A stretch of DNA of 64,000 bases from Treponemataceae bacterium (GTDB lineage Bacteria; Spirochaetota; Spirochaetia; Treponematales; Rectinemataceae), in the NCBI GenBank assembly GCA_963667725.2, contig CAXXHO010000003.1, positions 1,568,001-1,632,000 on the forward strand, written 5' to 3'. Position numbers and translations under genes: made by a program. Below are positions 48,302 through 55,403 of the stretch, piece by piece; the stretch's first letter is position 1; every line of letters starts with the position of its first letter. The notes under the pieces were generated by a model. It did no database searches, was not told the origin of the DNA, and saw nothing but the letters and a program-made list of their open reading frames with translations.

Positions 48302-48374
48302 CGGGCTGTAGCGCAGGGGCTAGCGCGCTTGGTTCGGGACCAAGATGTCGGAGGTTCAAATCCTCTCAGCCCGA
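48302..48374 (+). tRNA. tRNA-Pro(CGG)
   Basis: CGGGCTG/CAGCCCG acceptor, CTTGG-TTCGGGA-CCAAG anticodon arm, GGTTCAAATCC T arm. Confidence 0.96.
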
Positions 48375-48383
48375 TTTTATGAT

Positions 48384-48579: not shown

Positions 48580-49917
48580 ATGGGGACCAAGTACCACCTT
48601 TTTTCACGCGATCGGACCGGAAAGGACGGTAAAATAGTTCGCCGCTGGTACTACTGGTACTGGGGGGAAGATGGCGTAAGGATCAAAAAGGCCGCCGGAC
48701 CTAATGGCAGCGCCCCCCTCCTGAAGAGAGAAGCGCAAGACTACATCGACCAGCTAGATGCCCCTCTAGTAATGCCAGGGCTCATCCCTGCCCTATCTAG
48801 CCCGCCGGCAAGCTTTGCCCCCTATGGAGCACCACGTACATTCAAGGCTTTCGCAGACACTCTCTATCTTCCTGATTCGCAGCATCTCAAGAGGAAAGCG
48901 CTCACCGATGGGGAACCAATCAGTGAAGACACTAGAACAGGGCATCGCAGTCGACTAAAAAACTACCTCATTCCAAAATGGGGCGAATGCTCTTGGGCTA
49001 CGTTTGCAGAACCGGGATTCCCCGATGATTTCACGGATTGGCTTGTTGATCTTGAGAGGATCCCGAAACACAAAGAAGGCACCCGTGTCCCTGATCCAGT
49101 TCCTATCTCCAACTCAACCAGGAATTCTCTTATAGAGACAATGACGATATCCCTAAGGGAAGCGAAACGGGCAAGATTGATCCTACAAGTCCCTGAGTTT
49201 GAGCGATTCAATAGGCTATCTCGTCACCAGGACACCCTTACGAATGAGGAACTGATTAAGCTCTTTCCGGAAGATCCGGATAAGCTCAAGAAAATATGGC
49301 AGCTCGAGGATGGCCGCGACTTGAATACTGGGTTGCTTTTCGGCGCTATGTGTTGTCTCGGAGTGTCGGCGGGGCTTCGATCCGGAGAACTTCGCGCGGT
49401 CTCGGCAGATCAAATAATCCGTACTCGACAACCGGATGGAGCTATGACCTATGGCCTTATAGTTGATAGAGCCTTGAACAGAAATAATGAGATCGCAGGA
49501 CTGAAGAAGGCTAACAAAGAAGATCTTCGCGTCCGTGTTGTCGTTTTATCGGATAAAACCATGCGAATACTTGATATGTACCTAACCAGTATCAAGCACA
49601 AGGAAGGACTACTCTTCCTCCATCGAGGCCAACCGGTTCGGAAAGAGAATCTTGGGAGACGCTGGGCCGGAGGGCTCAAACAAGCGAAGATTCCTTTAAA
49701 AGGGAGGCGGCTTACTCCTCATGCAATGCGGTACACCTACAATACACGCATGAGGATGCTGCTTTCAGAGCAGGTACTCCAGGAGGTAGTCGGACACAGG
49801 TCGGATGCCATGACGGCTCTCTATGATCGGCCTCACCTTGTAGAACGGTTGAAGCAACTATCAGATCAACAAGGTGCTTTCAATAAATTCTGGGGAGAGG
49901 TTAAAGCCATCACCTAA
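48580..49917 (+). CDS. Tyrosine recombinase / phage integrase
   Basis: GLRSGE (R), HAMR (HxxR), GH...TALY (H, Y); AAGGGAG RBS; possible promoter TTGCAA-17-TATTAT at 48459-48487. Confidence 0.93.
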   Translation: MGTKYHLFSRDRTGKDGKIVRRWYYWYWGEDGVRIKKAAGPNGSAPLLKREAQDYIDQLDAPLVMPGLIPALSSPPASFAPYGAPRTFKAFADTLYLPDSQHLKRKALTDGEPISEDTRTGHRSRLKNYLIPKWGECSWATFAEPGFPDDFTDWLVDLERIPKHKEGTRVPDPVPISNSTRNSLIETMTISLREAKRARLILQVPEFERFNRLSRHQDTLTNEELIKLFPEDPDKLKKIWQLEDGRDLNTGLLFGAMCCLGVSAGLRSGELRAVSADQIIRTRQPDGAMTYGLIVDRALNRNNEIAGLKKANKEDLRVRVVVLSDKTMRILDMYLTSIKHKEGLLFLHRGQPVRKENLGRRWAGGLKQAKIPLKGRRLTPHAMRYTYNTRMRMLLSEQVLQEVVGHRSDAMTALYDRPHLVERLKQLSDQQGAFNKFWGEVKAIT

Positions 49918-50025
49918 AAGCAGTAATTGTGAAGTGGTTTTCGCGACCGGAGAATTAGTAACTTCTCAAGCATATCAAGGTAATATTTATTTACTACAGC
50001 CCTCATTAACTAATATTTTTACTTA

Positions 50026-50739
50026 GGGGCTGTACTAGATAAAATAAGATGTTATACTTAAAAAGTGATCATAAGTCATTGCAGGTTAATGAAAAGAACA
50101 CAAGAAAGACTCCTCGAATTCTTTGTGCTAGAAGTAACTGCTAGATCTGCTGCAAATATACTAGAAATTCATTCTAATTCTGCAGCTCTTTTCTATCGGA
50201 AAATTCGTCAAGTTATAGCCTTTCATGTAGCCCAGGAAGCAGCTGAAGTATTCAATGGTGAAGTAGAAATCGATGAAAGCTACTTCGGTGGAGTTCGCAA
50301 AGGTAAACGAGGCCGAGGCGCTGCTGGGAAAGTAGTCGTCTTTGGCATGCTAAAGCGCCATGGCAAGGTTTTCACCGTTGTTGTGGAGAATACCAAGACA
50401 AAGACCCTAATGAACGAAATTGCCCGTAAAATCAAGCCCGATAGCGTTGTCTATACTGATGCCTATCATAGTTACGATGCGTTGGACGTTAGTGAATTCC
50501 ATCATCTCCGAATAAATCATTCAGATATATTTGTTGATGAAAAGAATCACATCAACGGAATAGAAAACTTTTGGAACCAAGCTAAAAGAGTATTAAGAAA
50601 GTACAATGGAATAGACAAGAAATATTTCTATCTGTTTCTGAAAGAATGTGAGTTCCGATTCAACTACGGAACACCAAAGAATCAACTTAAAATTCTTAGA
50701 AAATGGTGCTCAATCTAGACTTTTATCTAGTACAGCCCC
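50026..50739 (+). mobile_element. IS1595-family (IS1016 group) insertion sequence, 714 bp
   Basis: Perfect 19-bp terminal inverted repeats GGGGCTGTACTAGATAAAA; 8-bp target duplication TTTACTTA at 50018-50025 and 50740-50747. Confidence 0.95.
50065..50718 (+). CDS. IS1016-like DDE transposase
   Basis: LLEFFVLEVTARSAA, EIDESYFGG, GKRGRGAAGK, YTD, NHINGIENFW, LKECEFRFN. Confidence 0.95.
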   Translation: MIISHCRLMKRTQERLLEFFVLEVTARSAANILEIHSNSAALFYRKIRQVIAFHVAQEAAEVFNGEVEIDESYFGGVRKGKRGRGAAGKVVVFGMLKRHGKVFTVVVENTKTKTLMNEIARKIKPDSVVYTDAYHSYDALDVSEFHHLRINHSDIFVDEKNHINGIENFWNQAKRVLRKYNGIDKKYFYLFLKECEFRFNYGTPKNQLKILRKWCSI

Positions 50740-50780
50740 TTTACTTATTACCTTATCCGAAGAAAAGCAATAAAATAGTA

Positions 50781-51587
50781 TTAGTTTTTTGATATTTTGG
50801 GTCTTTTAATATTAAACAAGAGTCTTTCTGCATCAATTGCTTTATTTATGTAAGTCAACATGCACAAAGCGAGAATATACATTACTATTCCTATAATGAC
50901 TAAGACAATTGAATTCACAATATCAATGGCCATGTAGATTGCAATGGTTAAGCCGAATAATACTCCAAATGCGATAATTAACGAATACTGGTAAGCTTCA
51001 CGAGTATCTTTTGAGATTGATGAAAAATATAAAACCAAACTCGATGCAGCAAATATCATAGCTGGCGAGACAAAAATCACCGCAATAGTCCATTCCAGAA
51101 TAGCTACTCCACTAATACCTACAAAAGCAATCGCAAGACTCAATTCGAGTATCCCTAATACCCATGCAATAACAACGGAAGGTAATACTATTTCTCCTAA
51201 TTTTGTTATAAAAATTGATCTTATGCTCATTGGCATACAAACAAGTGTTTCCAAAGTACCCTGTTCTTTTTCCTCAATAATAAGGCTAATTCCAATGATA
51301 AATGGAAAAGCTAACTGTAAAAGTAAATAATATAAAGGTAACACATTATTAAAAATCACTAAATATGCCGGATTAACAGTACCTTGGTATCTAGCAAGAG
51401 TCACCGCCCAAAATCTGCTCTGATTTGTAAGCGCTACCACATCAATTAAATTACCAAAGGTTATTGAATAGACTGCGATATTCATTATTATCAGCAATAA
51501 AGGTATTGCAATAAGTGCACTTGCATTCTTTTTATCAGCAAAGATATACCTAAGGTCACTTTTAATTAAGAATAATCTTGAATTCAT
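50781..51587 (-). CDS. ABC-2 type permease (peptide export/immunity)
   Basis: EEKEQGTLETLVCMP motif, six TM helices; AT-rich. Confidence 0.85.
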   Translation of the reverse strand: MNSRLFLIKSDLRYIFADKKNASALIAIPLLLIIMNIAVYSITFGNLIDVVALTNQSRFWAVTLARYQGTVNPAYLVIFNNVLPLYYLLLQLAFPFIIGISLIIEEKEQGTLETLVCMPMSIRSIFITKLGEIVLPSVVIAWVLGILELSLAIAFVGISGVAILEWTIAVIFVSPAMIFAASSLVLYFSSISKDTREAYQYSLIIAFGVLFGLTIAIYMAIDIVNSIVLVIIGIVMYILALCMLTYINKAIDAERLLFNIKRPKISKN

Positions 51588-52306
51588 ATTATTTTCCCTC
51601 GTGCTTTAAAATAAGCGTCACCAAGGTTATCACAGCTGTATCTTTCATATATGTTTTGGATAGTATCTTCGCATACAATTTTTGATTTAAAAAGAAAACC
51701 GATATGAGAGCAGAAAGCTTGGCAAAATACTAGATCATGTGAACTAATAAAAAAAGTTACCCCATTTTGGGAATTTAAGATTTTTATAAGCCGAATTACA
51801 CTCTCGGCGCCTTCCGGATCTAAATTTGCAAAAGGTTCATCCCAAAAAACGAGAATTGGTCTGTGGATAATTGAGCGCACTAGATCTACTTTTTTCTTAT
51901 TCCCTGAGGACAAAGCGGAATATTTTGTTTTCTTATATTCAGAAATGTATAGTTGATCCATTAGTTCGCTTAGCTCGTTTTTTGAAAGAGTGTTGGGATA
52001 AAAACCAGCATAAAACGCTAGATTCTGATCAACCGTAAGATGAGGTCGAAGCATAGTTTCTTCTGTAGATACCCCTGCGAGTTTGTGTATCTTTTCTTTT
52101 TCTTTCATTGGATTAATGCCAAGTATACTTACATATCCGCTTTCAATACGAAATAAACCATTCATTACCCTAATTAAGCTCGTTTTCCCGGCTCCGTTGG
52201 ATCCCAAGAGCCCATAAATTGATTTTTCTTTGCATGACACAGATACATTGTTAAGGATTGTTTTTTCACCAATTGTTTTTACTATATTTTGCACATCAAT
52301 AATCAT
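51584..52306 (-). CDS. ABC transporter ATP-binding protein
   Basis: GSNGAGKT, LSSGNKKK, WDEPFANLD, SSH; AGGAG RBS before ATG 52306. Confidence 0.9.
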   Translation of the reverse strand: MIIDVQNIVKTIGEKTILNNVSVSCKEKSIYGLLGSNGAGKTSLIRVMNGLFRIESGYVSILGINPMKEKEKIHKLAGVSTEETMLRPHLTVDQNLAFYAGFYPNTLSKNELSELMDQLYISEYKKTKYSALSSGNKKKVDLVRSIIHRPILVFWDEPFANLDPEGAESVIRLIKILNSQNGVTFFISSHDLVFCQAFCSHIGFLFKSKIVCEDTIQNIYERYSCDNLGDAYFKARGKII

Positions 52307-52308
52307 CT

Positions 52309-52854
52309 TTAGCTCCTGAAATACTTGATCAAGCCCGGCAACTGAACACACTCCATTATACAAATAAGCTTTATTGTGTCGCTAATGAAATTTTCATAGC
52401 TCTTTTTTTTCATATGATAGACAAGACTTACATAAATTGCTTGGAGCACTGTAATTACTATCATTACTAAGGTAATAGGTGCTCTCCGTCCATCCAATTG
52501 ACTTCCAAAAGCAAATAACGAATAAGATTGTGGATTATTTTTATAATATATCAATAAAACCGCTATCAGCCCACTAAAAATCCAAAATGAACTAGCAACC
52601 ACAGAAATAAAAAGACGAGAATCCTTTTCTGCCTCAAATGTAAGTAGGAAGAATACCTTTTTATATATTATTACTAATATTAAATATGTCACTACTTGTA
52701 AGAAAAACATTACGAAGGTCATTGTACGAGAGACCAGAAAAGCCAATCCAGGTAAAGAAGCCACACCTAAAATGGTATTATTATCCTGAATCAACAACGT
52801 TTGGAGACCAGCACATACTAGAAGTGATACAGCGATGAAAACATACCTTTTCAT
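52309..52854 (-). CDS. Multi-pass membrane protein (Yip1-like by position)
   Basis: 4-5 hydrophobic segments; translationally coupled to the SpoIIM-like gene. Confidence 0.65.
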   Translation of the reverse strand: MKRYVFIAVSLLVCAGLQTLLIQDNNTILGVASLPGLAFLVSRTMTFVMFFLQVVTYLILVIIYKKVFFLLTFEAEKDSRLFISVVASSFWIFSGLIAVLLIYYKNNPQSYSLFAFGSQLDGRRAPITLVMIVITVLQAIYVSLVYHMKKKSYENFISDTIKLICIMECVQLPGLIKYFRS

Positions 52855-53357
52855 AATATTCTTATATATGAATTTATGCTTTTTAGAAGTGAAGACTCAA
52901 CAAATGCTCCAATAATGAGCAACATTAATGCGAGTACTGAAGTAAACATGAGTTCCATCTCCAGGTGTGTTTTACGACGGAATATCTTATTCATAACGCT
53001 TGAAAATCCAACTGCAGTCATAAGACAATATGCGGTTAGCTCACTAAAAAAAACAATCCATACCCCTTTATCAATAAAAGAGTACAAACTAATATACGGA
53101 AGAACATATGAGAAGAATATCACTGAATTAGTAACAGAAACTAATAAAGTTGAAAGGCCATATGTATAAATCCCAGATGCGAGCAATATACTTACTAATA
53201 TGTTGCTGAACAAAATACCAAAAGCATTTTTTTCGGTTAATTTTCCACCAAGCTGCAATACCCTGGAAGGAATTAATACCTGATTAACGATATATAATAG
53301 AGTCCAATATAAAATACAAATTGCTAATAAGCCCAAGAAGAAGGTTCGATTCTTCAT
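52851..53357 (-). CDS. SpoIIM/DUF95-like membrane protein
   Basis: ILFSNILV..G..T.G...L....N, central EL, C-terminal LLIIGAFVE match the DUF95 pattern; canonical PHG not visible. Confidence 0.7.
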   Translation of the reverse strand: MKNRTFFLGLLAICILYWTLLYIVNQVLIPSRVLQLGGKLTEKNAFGILFSNILVSILLASGIYTYGLSTLLVSVTNSVIFFSYVLPYISLYSFIDKGVWIVFFSELTAYCLMTAVGFSSVMNKIFRRKTHLEMELMFTSVLALMLLIIGAFVESSLLKSINSYIRIL

Positions 53358-53381
53358 TTTCTAGGATTTTGAGGTAATTTA

Positions 53382-53418
53382 CTAAAGGCAGCGGATTTGG
53401 GATCTCCGCTGCCTTTAG
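53382..53418 (-). terminator. Intra-operon hairpin directly after the peptide gene
   Basis: Perfect 14-bp stem CTAAAGGCAGCGGA/TCCGCTGCCTTTAG with 9-nt loop and only a short U tract. Confidence 0.75.
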
Positions 53419-53419
53419 C

Positions 53420-53632
53420 TTACAGCCCCCAGGATGTAATCATTCCAAGAAGGAACCATCCTGCAGGACCAGCAGCACCGCATGCTAATGCGGCTACGCT
53501 AAAGTAGGTGCTGCCGATAAAGACGCCGACACCAACTCCGGGAATAAAGAGTGCGAGATTCGCCCCTCCCGAAATCAGTCCCACAAGAACAAGCCCCAAC
53601 AGCCATGCAATACCTTTCACCTTTTTTTGCAT
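53420..53632 (-). CDS. Putative circular bacteriocin precursor, 70 aa
   Basis: AAGGAGG RBS; MQKKVKGIAWLLGLVLVGLISGGAN followed by a Gly/Ala-rich hydrophobic core; first gene of a DUF95/membrane/ABC operon. Confidence 0.7.
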   Translation of the reverse strand: MQKKVKGIAWLLGLVLVGLISGGANLALFIPGVGVGVFIGSTYFSVAALACGAAGPAGWFLLGMITSWGL

Positions 53633-53661
53633 GAGCTCCTCCTTAAAAAATACCAAATTCG

Positions 53662-53690
53662 ACTATAAATCTGAAAATGTTACCTGTCAA
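53662..53690 (-). promoter_or_regulatory. Near-consensus sigma70 promoter of the peptide operon
   Basis: Minus strand TTGACA-17 bp-TATAGT, 30 bp upstream of the ATG. Confidence 0.8.
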
Positions 53691-54192
53691 TTAAAATAGT
53701 ATAAAATCGTATAACAGTGCCCTGGTACAAAGAAGAAAAATGTTTATTGATGATGAAAATATGGCAATGTATAATAAAGATGCATTACAGAATTTTAAGG
53801 TACTTTATTACTATAGTTACCTATTTTCATGAAGGATTCTTTTACAAGTACAATTGCTTATAGAGTTCGTTCACCTTCTTCTACAATTCGAGCGATTTCT
53901 TGTAGAATTCGGGCAAGCTTACCGACAATACTTCCACTGAATAACTTTATGCTATTGAGCTCACTTCGACATTCGTTGACTAACTTCTAAATCTCTGATT
54001 ACTTCCTTGTTAGCAGCTAGTTGCTTCCCGAGGGCTGGTTTTAAAATCCAAAGGCTGCGCCCCCCCGACACGGCACCAAGAATGAAAGCAAGAGAGTACG
54101 TTCCAAAAAAAATACCAGCAACGAACTAATAAGTAGAGGTAATAAACCAAAGAAGATGAGCATATTAGTTAATAAAGCTAATAACCTCTCTT

Positions 54193-54507
54193 CTATTTCA
54201 CTTCAAATCGCCCTGCCCTAAACCGGAGGTCTTCAGCACTCTTTTTCGCGAACTCCTCGATGTGATCCTCGAACTTGACCAAGAAAGATCCCATCTCGTC
54301 ATATTCGAAAGCTTCATCTGCAACGAAAACGAGACGAATTTTCTGGTTTGATGCTGCATTCTTCAGTGTGAATTTTTGCCACCCTTGGCCAGTATTCCTA
54401 TTTGGCTCGTCCCAGATCAAGAGCAAGCCAGGGAACCTTCTGTTAAAACGTTCCTGGAGATCCTTACAAGCAAGATCTCTATTTTGATCACCACTCTTGA
54501 AAAACGT
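54193..54507 (-). pseudogene. Hypothetical ORF (104 codons) with ACG where a start is expected
   Basis: GAGGGAGG-CAGGT-ACG opens a frame that continues into the 77-aa tracked ORF. Confidence 0.4.
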
Positions 54508-54751
54508 ACCTGCCTCCCTCTATCAGAACCAAAATTGAAAGAAAGAACATACTAGGCAACACGGATAGTCTCAAGGAGCTTTCAAGATGTTAGTTTTTCG
54601 ACTGCCGATCAATTCCCAAGATTAGTACTCACAATCGAAATTATTCCAACGACATCAAGCAAGAAGCGCCTTTTCTAAAGGAGAGTTATGGCTTAAAACA
54701 TAACGCTCTCTCTTGCCACGACTACTACTCCTCAAGAAATTATGGATCACT

Positions 54752-54998
54752 TTATCTAGTTTTTGAAGTCGTCCTTAGCTTTGGGCCTAGCCTATGTAGG
54801 TTTTTCCAATAGAGTTCACAAAATTCTTTCATATTAAGTAAGACGAAAGTCGTGAATTCATCAATTTTCTTATCTTCATCTTTCTTTTTTAGTCTCGCTA
54901 TAGTTGTCCCCAATACTGTCAGAAAAGAATAAACCGTCTGATGTTTTATGCCCGATGTTACTGCGACGGCAGTTTATATAGTTTTCTTAGTTAAGCAT
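54752..54998 (-). pseudogene. Decayed HU/IHF-like DNA-binding protein gene
   Basis: Frame reads AVAVTSGIKHQTVYSFLTVLGTTIARLKKKDEDKKIDEFTTFVL, resembling HU (AVA..SG...TI...KK.E...I..F.TF); stop and frameshift near the 5' end. Confidence 0.4.
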
Positions 54999-55028
54999 GG
55001 AATAGGATAATATTTTTGCAGCCCGGGC

Positions 55029-55403
55029 TTAGGCTTCCGACCCGTTTTTCACAAGTTCTGTATCTTCAATCGCTAGTGCATGAATCGTATCGCAGAAATA
55101 TCTAGACATATTTGGTGAAATAACGTCAAGATCATTAACCGCTTGACGCCACCGTCGAGCTTTTGCATAAAACTCCGCTTCGGATGCGGATAAGATGATT
55201 GGCTCCACTCCAGTTACAAAGTACTCAACAGTTGTATTCAAGGCTGTCGCAATACCTACTGCTGCATCAGCGGGTGGTATTGTTTTTCTTGATGACCATC
55301 TTCTAAAAGAATCTGATCGTACTCCTATCTTTTGTGATACCCAGTCCATAGTAGTATTTTCAGACTCGATCTTCTGCCTAATACGGGACCAAAAGTTTTC
55401 CAT
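55029..55403 (-). CDS. XRE-family HTH repressor (CI-like, no peptidase domain)
   Basis: FWSRI...VSQKIGV.......W....TIP.......IA.AL.TTVEYFVTG; divergent from the early operon. Confidence 0.88.
   Translation of the reverse strand: MENFWSRIRQKIESENTTMDWVSQKIGVRSDSFRRWSSRKTIPPADAAVGIATALNTTVEYFVTGVEPIILSASEAEFYAKARRWRQAVNDLDVISPNMSRYFCDTIHALAIEDTELVKNGSEA

Follow-up and report, generated by a model that had tools for sequence, protein, structure and literature searches.

In the papers cited here, characterised circular bacteriocins come from Bacillota and have cores of 58-76 residues, nearly all with a basic patch (PMC7132975; bioRxiv 10.1101/2025.10.31.685828). One survey gives 58-70 aa, a polybasic region in 111 of the 119 peptides surveyed, a single Cys in 10 of the 119 and a link to mobile elements for 20% (PMC7132975), and the subgroup sizes, the 76-aa altitudin S and the occurrence of Yip1 proteins are described in bioRxiv 10.1101/2025.10.31.685828. 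A SpoIIM (DUF95) protein is reported in all circular bacteriocin clusters, along with an immunity gene (PMC6131525), and is treated as class-defining (PMC6131525, PMC13289728); precursor, SpoIIM and transporter genes together are a published mining criterion (PMC8659200, PMC13289728). In subgroup II the Asn cleavage site is reported as conserved, and the producers of circular bacteriocins are mainly Firmicutes (PMC8659200). A further survey lists eight head-to-tail clusters, two in Chloroflexi and none in 21 spirochaete genomes (PMC4289311). Here we describe a five-gene operon in a 64,000-nt stretch (the window) of contig CAXXHO010000003.1 of a Treponemataceae bacterium. The operon probably acts as a SpoIIM-plus-ABC cluster of the subgroup II kind and makes a head-to-tail cyclised, uncharged membrane peptide of 45 residues, a candidate bacteriocin. 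The genes, their order, their homologues, a recurring promoter and hairpin, and a core conserved above the leader were observed directly and are the basis of this reading.

The operon and its related loci

Analysis of the window indicated that all five minus-strand open reading frames (ORFs) named in the original prediction, a note made from the DNA alone, are present at positions 50,781-53,632; they encode the peptide, a SpoIIM-like protein, a 181-aa protein, an ATPase and a permease (Table 1). The last four genes are joined by 4-nt overlaps or 2-nt gaps, the operon is single-copy in the genome, and its GC content of 0.349 vs 0.557 for the genome bears out the AT-richness that had been claimed. 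The host belongs to the phylum Spirochaetota, again as predicted. In assemblies of three runs from one sample, a single contig of 7,387 bases contains the operon; no variant is listed for it, and its depth is flank-like.

Table 1. Positions of the operon features and of the carrier element features in the window.
Feature	Position	Strand	Evidence
Precursor, 70 aa	53420..53632	-	ATG start behind AGGAGG site; homologues at L066, L067, L069
Sigma-70-type promoter TTGACA-17-TATAGT	53662..53690	-	11/12, best of 19 matches; similar site 5' of 3/3 homologous precursors
RNA hairpin between precursor and SpoIIM genes	53379..53423 (approximate ends)	-	-28 kcal/mol, z -5.7
Divergent SpoIIM/DUF95 membrane protein, 168 aa, five helices	52851..53357	-	PF01944 similarity, homologues, model
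Membrane protein, 181 aa, about 5 hydrophobic segments, no known family	52309..52854	-	Homologue in same slot at 3/3 related loci
ABC ATPase, DrrA-like exporter type, 240 aa	51584..52306	-	PF00005 E=7e-25; best NCBIfam model DrrA, below cut-off
ABC-2 permease, 268 aa	50781..51587	-	ABC2_membrane_2 E=2.6e-5, below cut-off
attL, 44-bp direct repeat at tRNA-Pro 3' end	48332..48375	+	Partner copy G000:C3:1656110-1656153
Tyrosine integrase of carrier element	48583..49917	+	Family matches
CI-like repressor of carrier element	55029..55391	-	Family matches
IS1595-family insertion sequence, not in operon	50026..50739 (also given as 50018-50747)	+	19-bp inverted ends, 8-bp target duplication

Three other loci, one complete and two ended by a contig edge, were found to carry a precursor of this family with the genes of the window operon behind it in unchanged order; the search for syntenic clusters proposed in the original prediction thus linked the peptide homologues to these genes. 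L066, on an unclassified metagenome contig, carries all five genes (identity to the window: peptide 41%, 181-aa protein 28%, ATPase 33%, permease 31%), and its permease passes the PF12679 cut-off. L067, from a Treponema metagenome-assembled genome (MAG), carries the peptide gene, the SpoIIM gene and the start of the third gene, where the contig ends, and L069, from genome G662 of the same order as the window genome (G000), carries the same first three genes up to the contig end. The set of precursor, SpoIIM and ABC transporter is complete in two of the four loci, and the contig ends in the other two. The third genes are mutually homologous.

The predicted promoter was found 29 nt before the precursor start. 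Its support comes from position and recurrence, because the 19 consensus matches counted in the window are at chance level (19.4 +/- 4.4 in shuffles); a TTGACA site with a spacing of 17 or 18 nt to the -10 element precedes all three homologous precursors. A hairpin of 16-17 bp separates the precursor and SpoIIM genes in three of the four loci, the window, L066 (z -5.5) and L069 (z -6.3), with unrelated sequences, and is likely an attenuator or mRNA stabiliser. No such intergenic hairpin was found at L067 or at L042, a separate spirochaete locus treated in the last section.

Precursor family and SpoIIM-like protein

The window precursor has a predicted 25-aa leader, with a Lys-rich start and a hydrophobic helix and with Asn25 as last residue, and a predicted uncharged core of 45 aa (Leu26-Leu70) with GRAVY 1.5 and one Cys; the cleavage site was set by analogy, and the core length depends on it. 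In all four precursors a basic start leads into a hydrophobic helix, which is followed by the motif [NC]-L-x-L-x-x-P, by A-C-[GA]-A-x-G-P-x-G-W in the centre and by W-x-[LA] at the C-terminus. Cutting after the first residue of the first motif, which gives Asn-Leu in three of the four precursors and Cys-Leu in L069, would leave leaders of 23-27 residues and cores of 45, 46, 45 and 46 residues. None of the four predicted cores contains K, R, D, E or H; their GRAVY values are 1.2-1.5, the Cys is invariant and the C-terminal residue is hydrophobic (Leu or Ala) in all. The alignment has 16 invariant columns, 13 of these within the core, and identity among the precursors amounts to 18-28 of 45-46 residues in the cores and 5-10 of 22-25 in the leaders. 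The window and L067 cores use different codons at 16 of 28 identical residues, which indicates that the protein sequence is under selection. The predicted core would have an average mass of 4442 Da if cyclic and 4460 Da if linear.

Searches with the SpoIIM-like protein gave a weak direct match to PF01944 (E=0.0014, 19 bits at a cut-off of 26.9; residues 9-155 on positions 5-159 of the 163-position profile). Among 1.84 billion representatives eight matches were obtained, namely the protein itself, six genuine homologues of 27-35% identity and one repetitive artefact (P0009), which was rejected as it has no SpoIIM match. Five of the six genuine homologues, including those of L066 (P0008) and L067, pass the PF01944 cut-off, and the SpoIIM/DUF95 similarity that had been predicted therefore holds transitively. 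The closest homologue, P0003, misses the cut-off, and for one protein in its cluster the source gives the name SpoIIM. Of 400 other genomes searched with a profile of the window family, 7 yielded canonical SpoIIM proteins. The structural model is a confident five-helix bundle (pLDDT 87.5) for which Foldseek found no PDB match at E<=0.001, and the family keeps N52, N77, E106 and E154. Word-indexed protein searches returned only the window's own peptide and SpoIIM-like protein, to which the profile version added only P0005 and P0008. For the 181-aa protein, a comparison with Yip1 had been proposed; the PF04893 profile gave no match to it at E<=1 and none in the window genome at E<=10, and a Yip1 identity is not supported.

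A SpoIIM protein is carried by 53 of 301 genomes of the spirochaete phylum, and among 19 short SpoIIM loci whose surroundings were read 18 lack a peptide-plus-ABC cluster and one has it; SpoIIM alone is therefore not diagnostic of a peptide cluster. This frequency, with the 18 short genes standing in housekeeping contexts and mostly beside a lipoprotein-like gene, would suit an arrangement in which the 70-aa protein escapes processing and belongs to an ABC export complex of another role, as its small membrane subunit or its substrate, the bacteriocin-like layout being coincidental, and so would the finding of GASGPVGW-like motifs in unrelated phage tail proteins. We regard it as very unlikely, as the precursor gene stands first in the operon and, in three of four loci, is parted by the hairpin from the translationally coupled genes, as in the plantacyclin cluster; moreover, a variable leader with a conserved core and a rare, patchy, AT-rich occurrence fit a secreted natural product. 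The housekeeping-type short SpoIIM gene of Spirochaetota usually adjoins a gene for a lipoprotein-like protein of 180-210 aa, forming a conserved pair (loci L034-L041, L044-L051 and L053). In one such family the pair lies between genes that we take, from their motifs, to be mutL and an alanine-racemase-like gene.

Comparison with circular bacteriocins

On the plasmid encoding plantacyclin B21AG (NZ_CP025732) the order is precursor (cut Asn-Ile, 58-aa core), hairpin, SpoIIM, a 54-aa immunity-type gene, ATPase, ABC-2 permease and a 173-aa protein. With subgroup II (plantacyclin B21AG, gassericin A, acidocin B, butyrivibriocin AR10) the window shares the order of precursor, hairpin, SpoIIM, a small slot, ATPase and ABC-2 permease, a leader of 22-35 residues with Asn in last place, hydrophobic residues at the core ends, a near-neutral core and an additional membrane protein of 170-180 aa. 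The circular-bacteriocin-like layout noted in the original prediction is supported, the gene order being like that of a subgroup II cluster. The two differ in that the window family has cores of 45-46 instead of 58 residues, uncharged, with an invariant Cys and no sequence homology; that it has neither the 54-aa immunity gene nor the PH-G/S motif of the plantacyclin SpoIIM protein; that the 181-aa and 173-aa proteins show no detectable relation (55 of 300 shuffles score as well); and that the hosts are diderm spirochaetes vs Bacillota.

Subgroup I (AS-48, circularin A, pumilarin, altitudin A) and altitudin S have the precursor, SpoIIM, membrane protein and ABC transporter in common with the window, according to bioRxiv 10.1101/2025.10.31.685828, but are cationic with 60-76 residues and have Yip1 in altitudin/pumilarin-type clusters, none of which is found at the window. 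The Chloroflexi head-to-tail clusters resemble it, by description only, as DUF95-marked predictions beyond Firmicutes (PMC4289311). The gene content is thus that of a circular bacteriocin cluster, while by homology, core length and immunity gene the peptide is not placed in any known family, and the membership in the AS-48, gassericin or butyrivibriocin families implied earlier has no sequence support. The peptide likely represents an undescribed family of a shorter, completely uncharged ring, as judged from the four predicted cores.

Several results weigh against a circular bacteriocin. The predicted core falls short of the known range of 58-76 residues and contains no basic residue, vs the polybasic region in 111 of 119 (PMC7132975); the cut site was chosen by analogy, and its Asn is replaced by Cys in L069. 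Pfam bacteriocin families did not match any of the three precursors scanned (E<=10), the PF12173 profile of subgroup II circular bacteriocins does not touch the precursor gene, and the precursor profile scored on plantacyclin no better than on shuffled sequence (498 of 500 shuffles score as well), so no homology was detected. Atlas rows naming circular bacteriocins score 0.77 for the peptide, within the chance range. The peptide model, of low confidence (pLDDT 60), has two helices in the core, not the four- or five-helix saposin-like fold. The window SpoIIM-like protein and P0003 are below the PF01944 cut-off, the SpoIIM-slot protein of L069 has no Pfam match at E<=0.01, and the PH-G/S motif, which stands before the first Glu of the plantacyclin and L042 proteins, is missing from the window family. 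A gene for a small cationic hydrophobic immunity protein has no room in the coupled operon, with the insertion sequence 41 nt past the permease, and no ORF of at least 25 aa follows the L066 permease. The operon has no gene for an outer-membrane channel or adaptor that would account for release from a diderm cell. Finally, four loci in all are known for the precursor family.

Foldseek with the low-confidence peptide model found no match at E<=0.001, PDB sequence searches returned nothing meaningful, and Atlas scores were below 0.9 for both the peptide and the 181-aa protein. Two viral matches to the peptide profile were discarded as long tail-region proteins sharing a short motif only. Other peptide types were considered and rejected: a lipoprotein, since Cys51 lies too far into the precursor; a cyclic pilin, no conjugation genes being seen in the carrier element; and a sactipeptide, there being no radical SAM gene within the operon.

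The product could also be linear: after removal of a signal-peptide-type leader, a helical hairpin rich in Gly and Ala would be released and act as a class IId-like bacteriocin or a signal, the other genes serving export and self-protection. The leader does resemble a Sec signal in its basic start and hydrophobic helix and in the G-G-A that precedes Asn25, and BlpM and glycine-zipper clusters are among the Atlas rows with similarly weak scores. In addition, the window SpoIIM lacks a conserved motif, and loss of lcyD (DUF95) did not abolish leucocyclicin Q cyclisation (PMC6131525), which makes SpoIIM a marker and not a proven cyclase. We nevertheless consider a linear product unlikely, given that every circular bacteriocin cluster is described as having a SpoIIM protein, which is taken to define the class, and that the C-terminal end is fixed in length with W-x-[LA] in all four precursors. 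In addition, the homologues do not keep the double glycine and there is no C39 peptidase transporter, for which reasons a double-glycine leader was also rejected in itself.

For the cyclised peptide that we favour, the following steps are proposed. The hairpin would keep precursor mRNA in excess, and the Lys-rich hydrophobic leader would anchor the precursor in the inner membrane. The precursor would be cut after Asn25, and Leu26 and Leu70 would be joined by the SpoIIM-like protein, the 181-aa protein or both; we know of no identified ring-closing ligase even in the characterised circular bacteriocin systems. The ABC-2 transporter may then extract the ring from the inner membrane and, together with the 181-aa protein, protect the producer, and the ring would permeabilise the membranes of competitors. 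The phage-related element carrying the operon is regarded as a recent vehicle and would stand outside this mechanism.

If the peptide is indeed cyclised, the pathway would extend to diderm spirochaetes and to a shorter, uncharged ring that precursor-based mining misses, and would bear on the long-open question of the protein responsible for leader cleavage and ring closure. The system offers a minimal five-gene set, four natural variants including one Asn-to-Cys change at the cut site, and a SpoIIM without the His motif that keeps two Glu and two Asn, so that deletions and point mutants would be informative. The interest rests in the peptide family and not in the phage location.

Carrier element and distribution

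The 44-bp repeats bound an element of about 39.8 kb integrated at tRNA-Pro. It carries integrase, repressor, excisionase-like, RusA-like, ParB-like and replication genes, followed by about 20 kb of AT-rich cargo, so that att sites, integrase, repressor, excisionase and a replication gene, features of temperate prophages, are present. No terminase, capsid, tail or lysis gene was found among 32 proteins compared with PHROGs or 18 element proteins compared with Pfam, some short ORFs being outside the scan, and PF03237, one terminase family only, is absent from the genome at E<=0.01. The prophage of the original prediction is thus better described as an integrated element related to phages, with no virion gene found in it. 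The position between integrase and repressor was correctly given, except that an IS1595 copy intervenes between the integrase and the operon.

An IS-end-like stretch lies just left of this insertion (about 49994-50003), and four other full or split IS1595 copies, 77-96% identical, occur on contig C5. Between the operon promoter and the repressor, a stretch of about 1.2 kb (53830-55030) contains only short or start-less frames (77-108 aa, 73 aa) without any family match and is likely decayed cargo. Just past the window end (L054:2335-3834) are genes matching phrog_4652 and phrog_15946, with a similar pair in a sister element. The right arm of the carrier (L054:5402-10150; G000:C3:1635402-1640150) holds HSDR_N-like, Abi-alpha and TIR-domain (CAP12/Pycsar type) genes and next to them genes for methyltransferases, PAS-HD, NUDIX, GNAT, HAD and deaminase proteins, nearly all on the minus strand.

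The sister element is integrated at tRNA-Glu of the same chromosome and is 78-83% identical to the carrier over shared stretches. Its integrase-repressor slot encodes DUF4297-HerA (E 8e-138, 8e-274), a NucC-like nuclease and a PD-T4-6-like kinase; these are anti-phage genes, and with such different contents in the two elements the slot is a variable cargo space. The AT-rich block between repressor and integrase measures 15 kb (L056:1734-18275; G000:C3 about 517.7-534.3 kb) and also holds genes of no known family (254, 466, 279 and 396 aa), which are candidate defence genes. Independent AT-rich units in variable slots are described, as here, for the hotspots of defence and cargo genes in prophages and satellites (bioRxiv 10.1101/2021.01.21.427644); unlike those, the carrier has no virion gene found and the cluster also occurs outside phage context.

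This setting could mean that the ring or processed peptide stays in the producer envelope and serves phage defence or exclusion, for instance by blocking DNA injection or depolarising the infected cell. The anti-phage genes of the sister slot and the Abi-alpha and TIR-domain genes in the other arm of the carrier favour such a role, as do a core without charge for target attraction, the lack of an outer-membrane exit and the lack of a small immunity gene. Still, PADLOC matched none of the four operon proteins scanned (the ATPase was outside the scan), the other three loci have transport and housekeeping genes as neighbours, among which neither phage nor defence genes were seen, and slot position is weak evidence because the same element bears unrelated cargo (methyltransferases, NUDIX, GNAT, HD-domain); we therefore hold a defence role to be rather unlikely. 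Decidedly unlikely, in our view, is the broader proposal of a new class of backbone-cyclised peptide from diderms, in which a 45-residue, wholly uncharged Cys-bearing ring would be made by a SpoIIM subfamily without the conserved His, would need no immunity protein, as it would act in the producer envelope, and would have been recruited to the defence slot of a phage-related element against other phages.

No phage genes or tRNAs were found at the other three loci within 16 kb around L066 and, on one side only, within 3 kb of L067 and 12 kb of the G662 cluster. As these loci show no phage context and no virion gene was found in the carrier, the operon is passenger cargo of a phage-related element; a lysogenic-conversion cassette, as had been proposed, is not supported as the nature of the system. 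The clusters of L066, L067 and G662 have a GC content below that of their flanks, which fits horizontal movement.

The precursor profile gave strong matches in 2 of 401 genomes of the order (G000 and G662), 1 of 401 of the family of G662 and 1 of 401 of the phylum (G000), these sets being samples with partly incomplete genomes. Weak genome matches were rejected, namely seven at E 0.0016-0.008 (long frames or frames containing a stop) and two plus two more, one of the last two having been examined and its context being not SpoIIM-like. Nothing was found in viral-contig locus scans with the permease, the cluster-1 alignment and A4, in the metagenome scan with the cluster-1 alignment or in the genome scan with P0005, and tblastn against plasmids and phages gave no match or two matches at E=8. 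No report of such a cluster in spirochaetes was found in the literature covered, which did not include subscription journals or supplements, where mining tables could list related matches.

A second, non-homologous candidate cyclic-peptide cluster is present in a Spirochaetota MAG (L042:3527-6630; G207:C143), with a 68-aa peptide, a canonical SpoIIM (55 bits), three membrane proteins and an ATPase. Its peptide, which does not match the window precursor profile, has 45 residues after an Asn (a hand-picked site) and two acidic residues, and its 90% cluster has four members. A 200-aa protein of this locus scores faintly as Yip1 (E 0.38) and, when compared with the profile of the 181-aa family, scores above 293 of 300 shuffles. 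In G662, a LolA-like gene, two FtsX/MacB permease genes and two ABC ATPase genes (L079:2547-8923; G662:C95) are located on the opposite strand, 3-10 kb upstream of the cluster; they are probably unrelated to it and may possibly provide a route across the periplasm.

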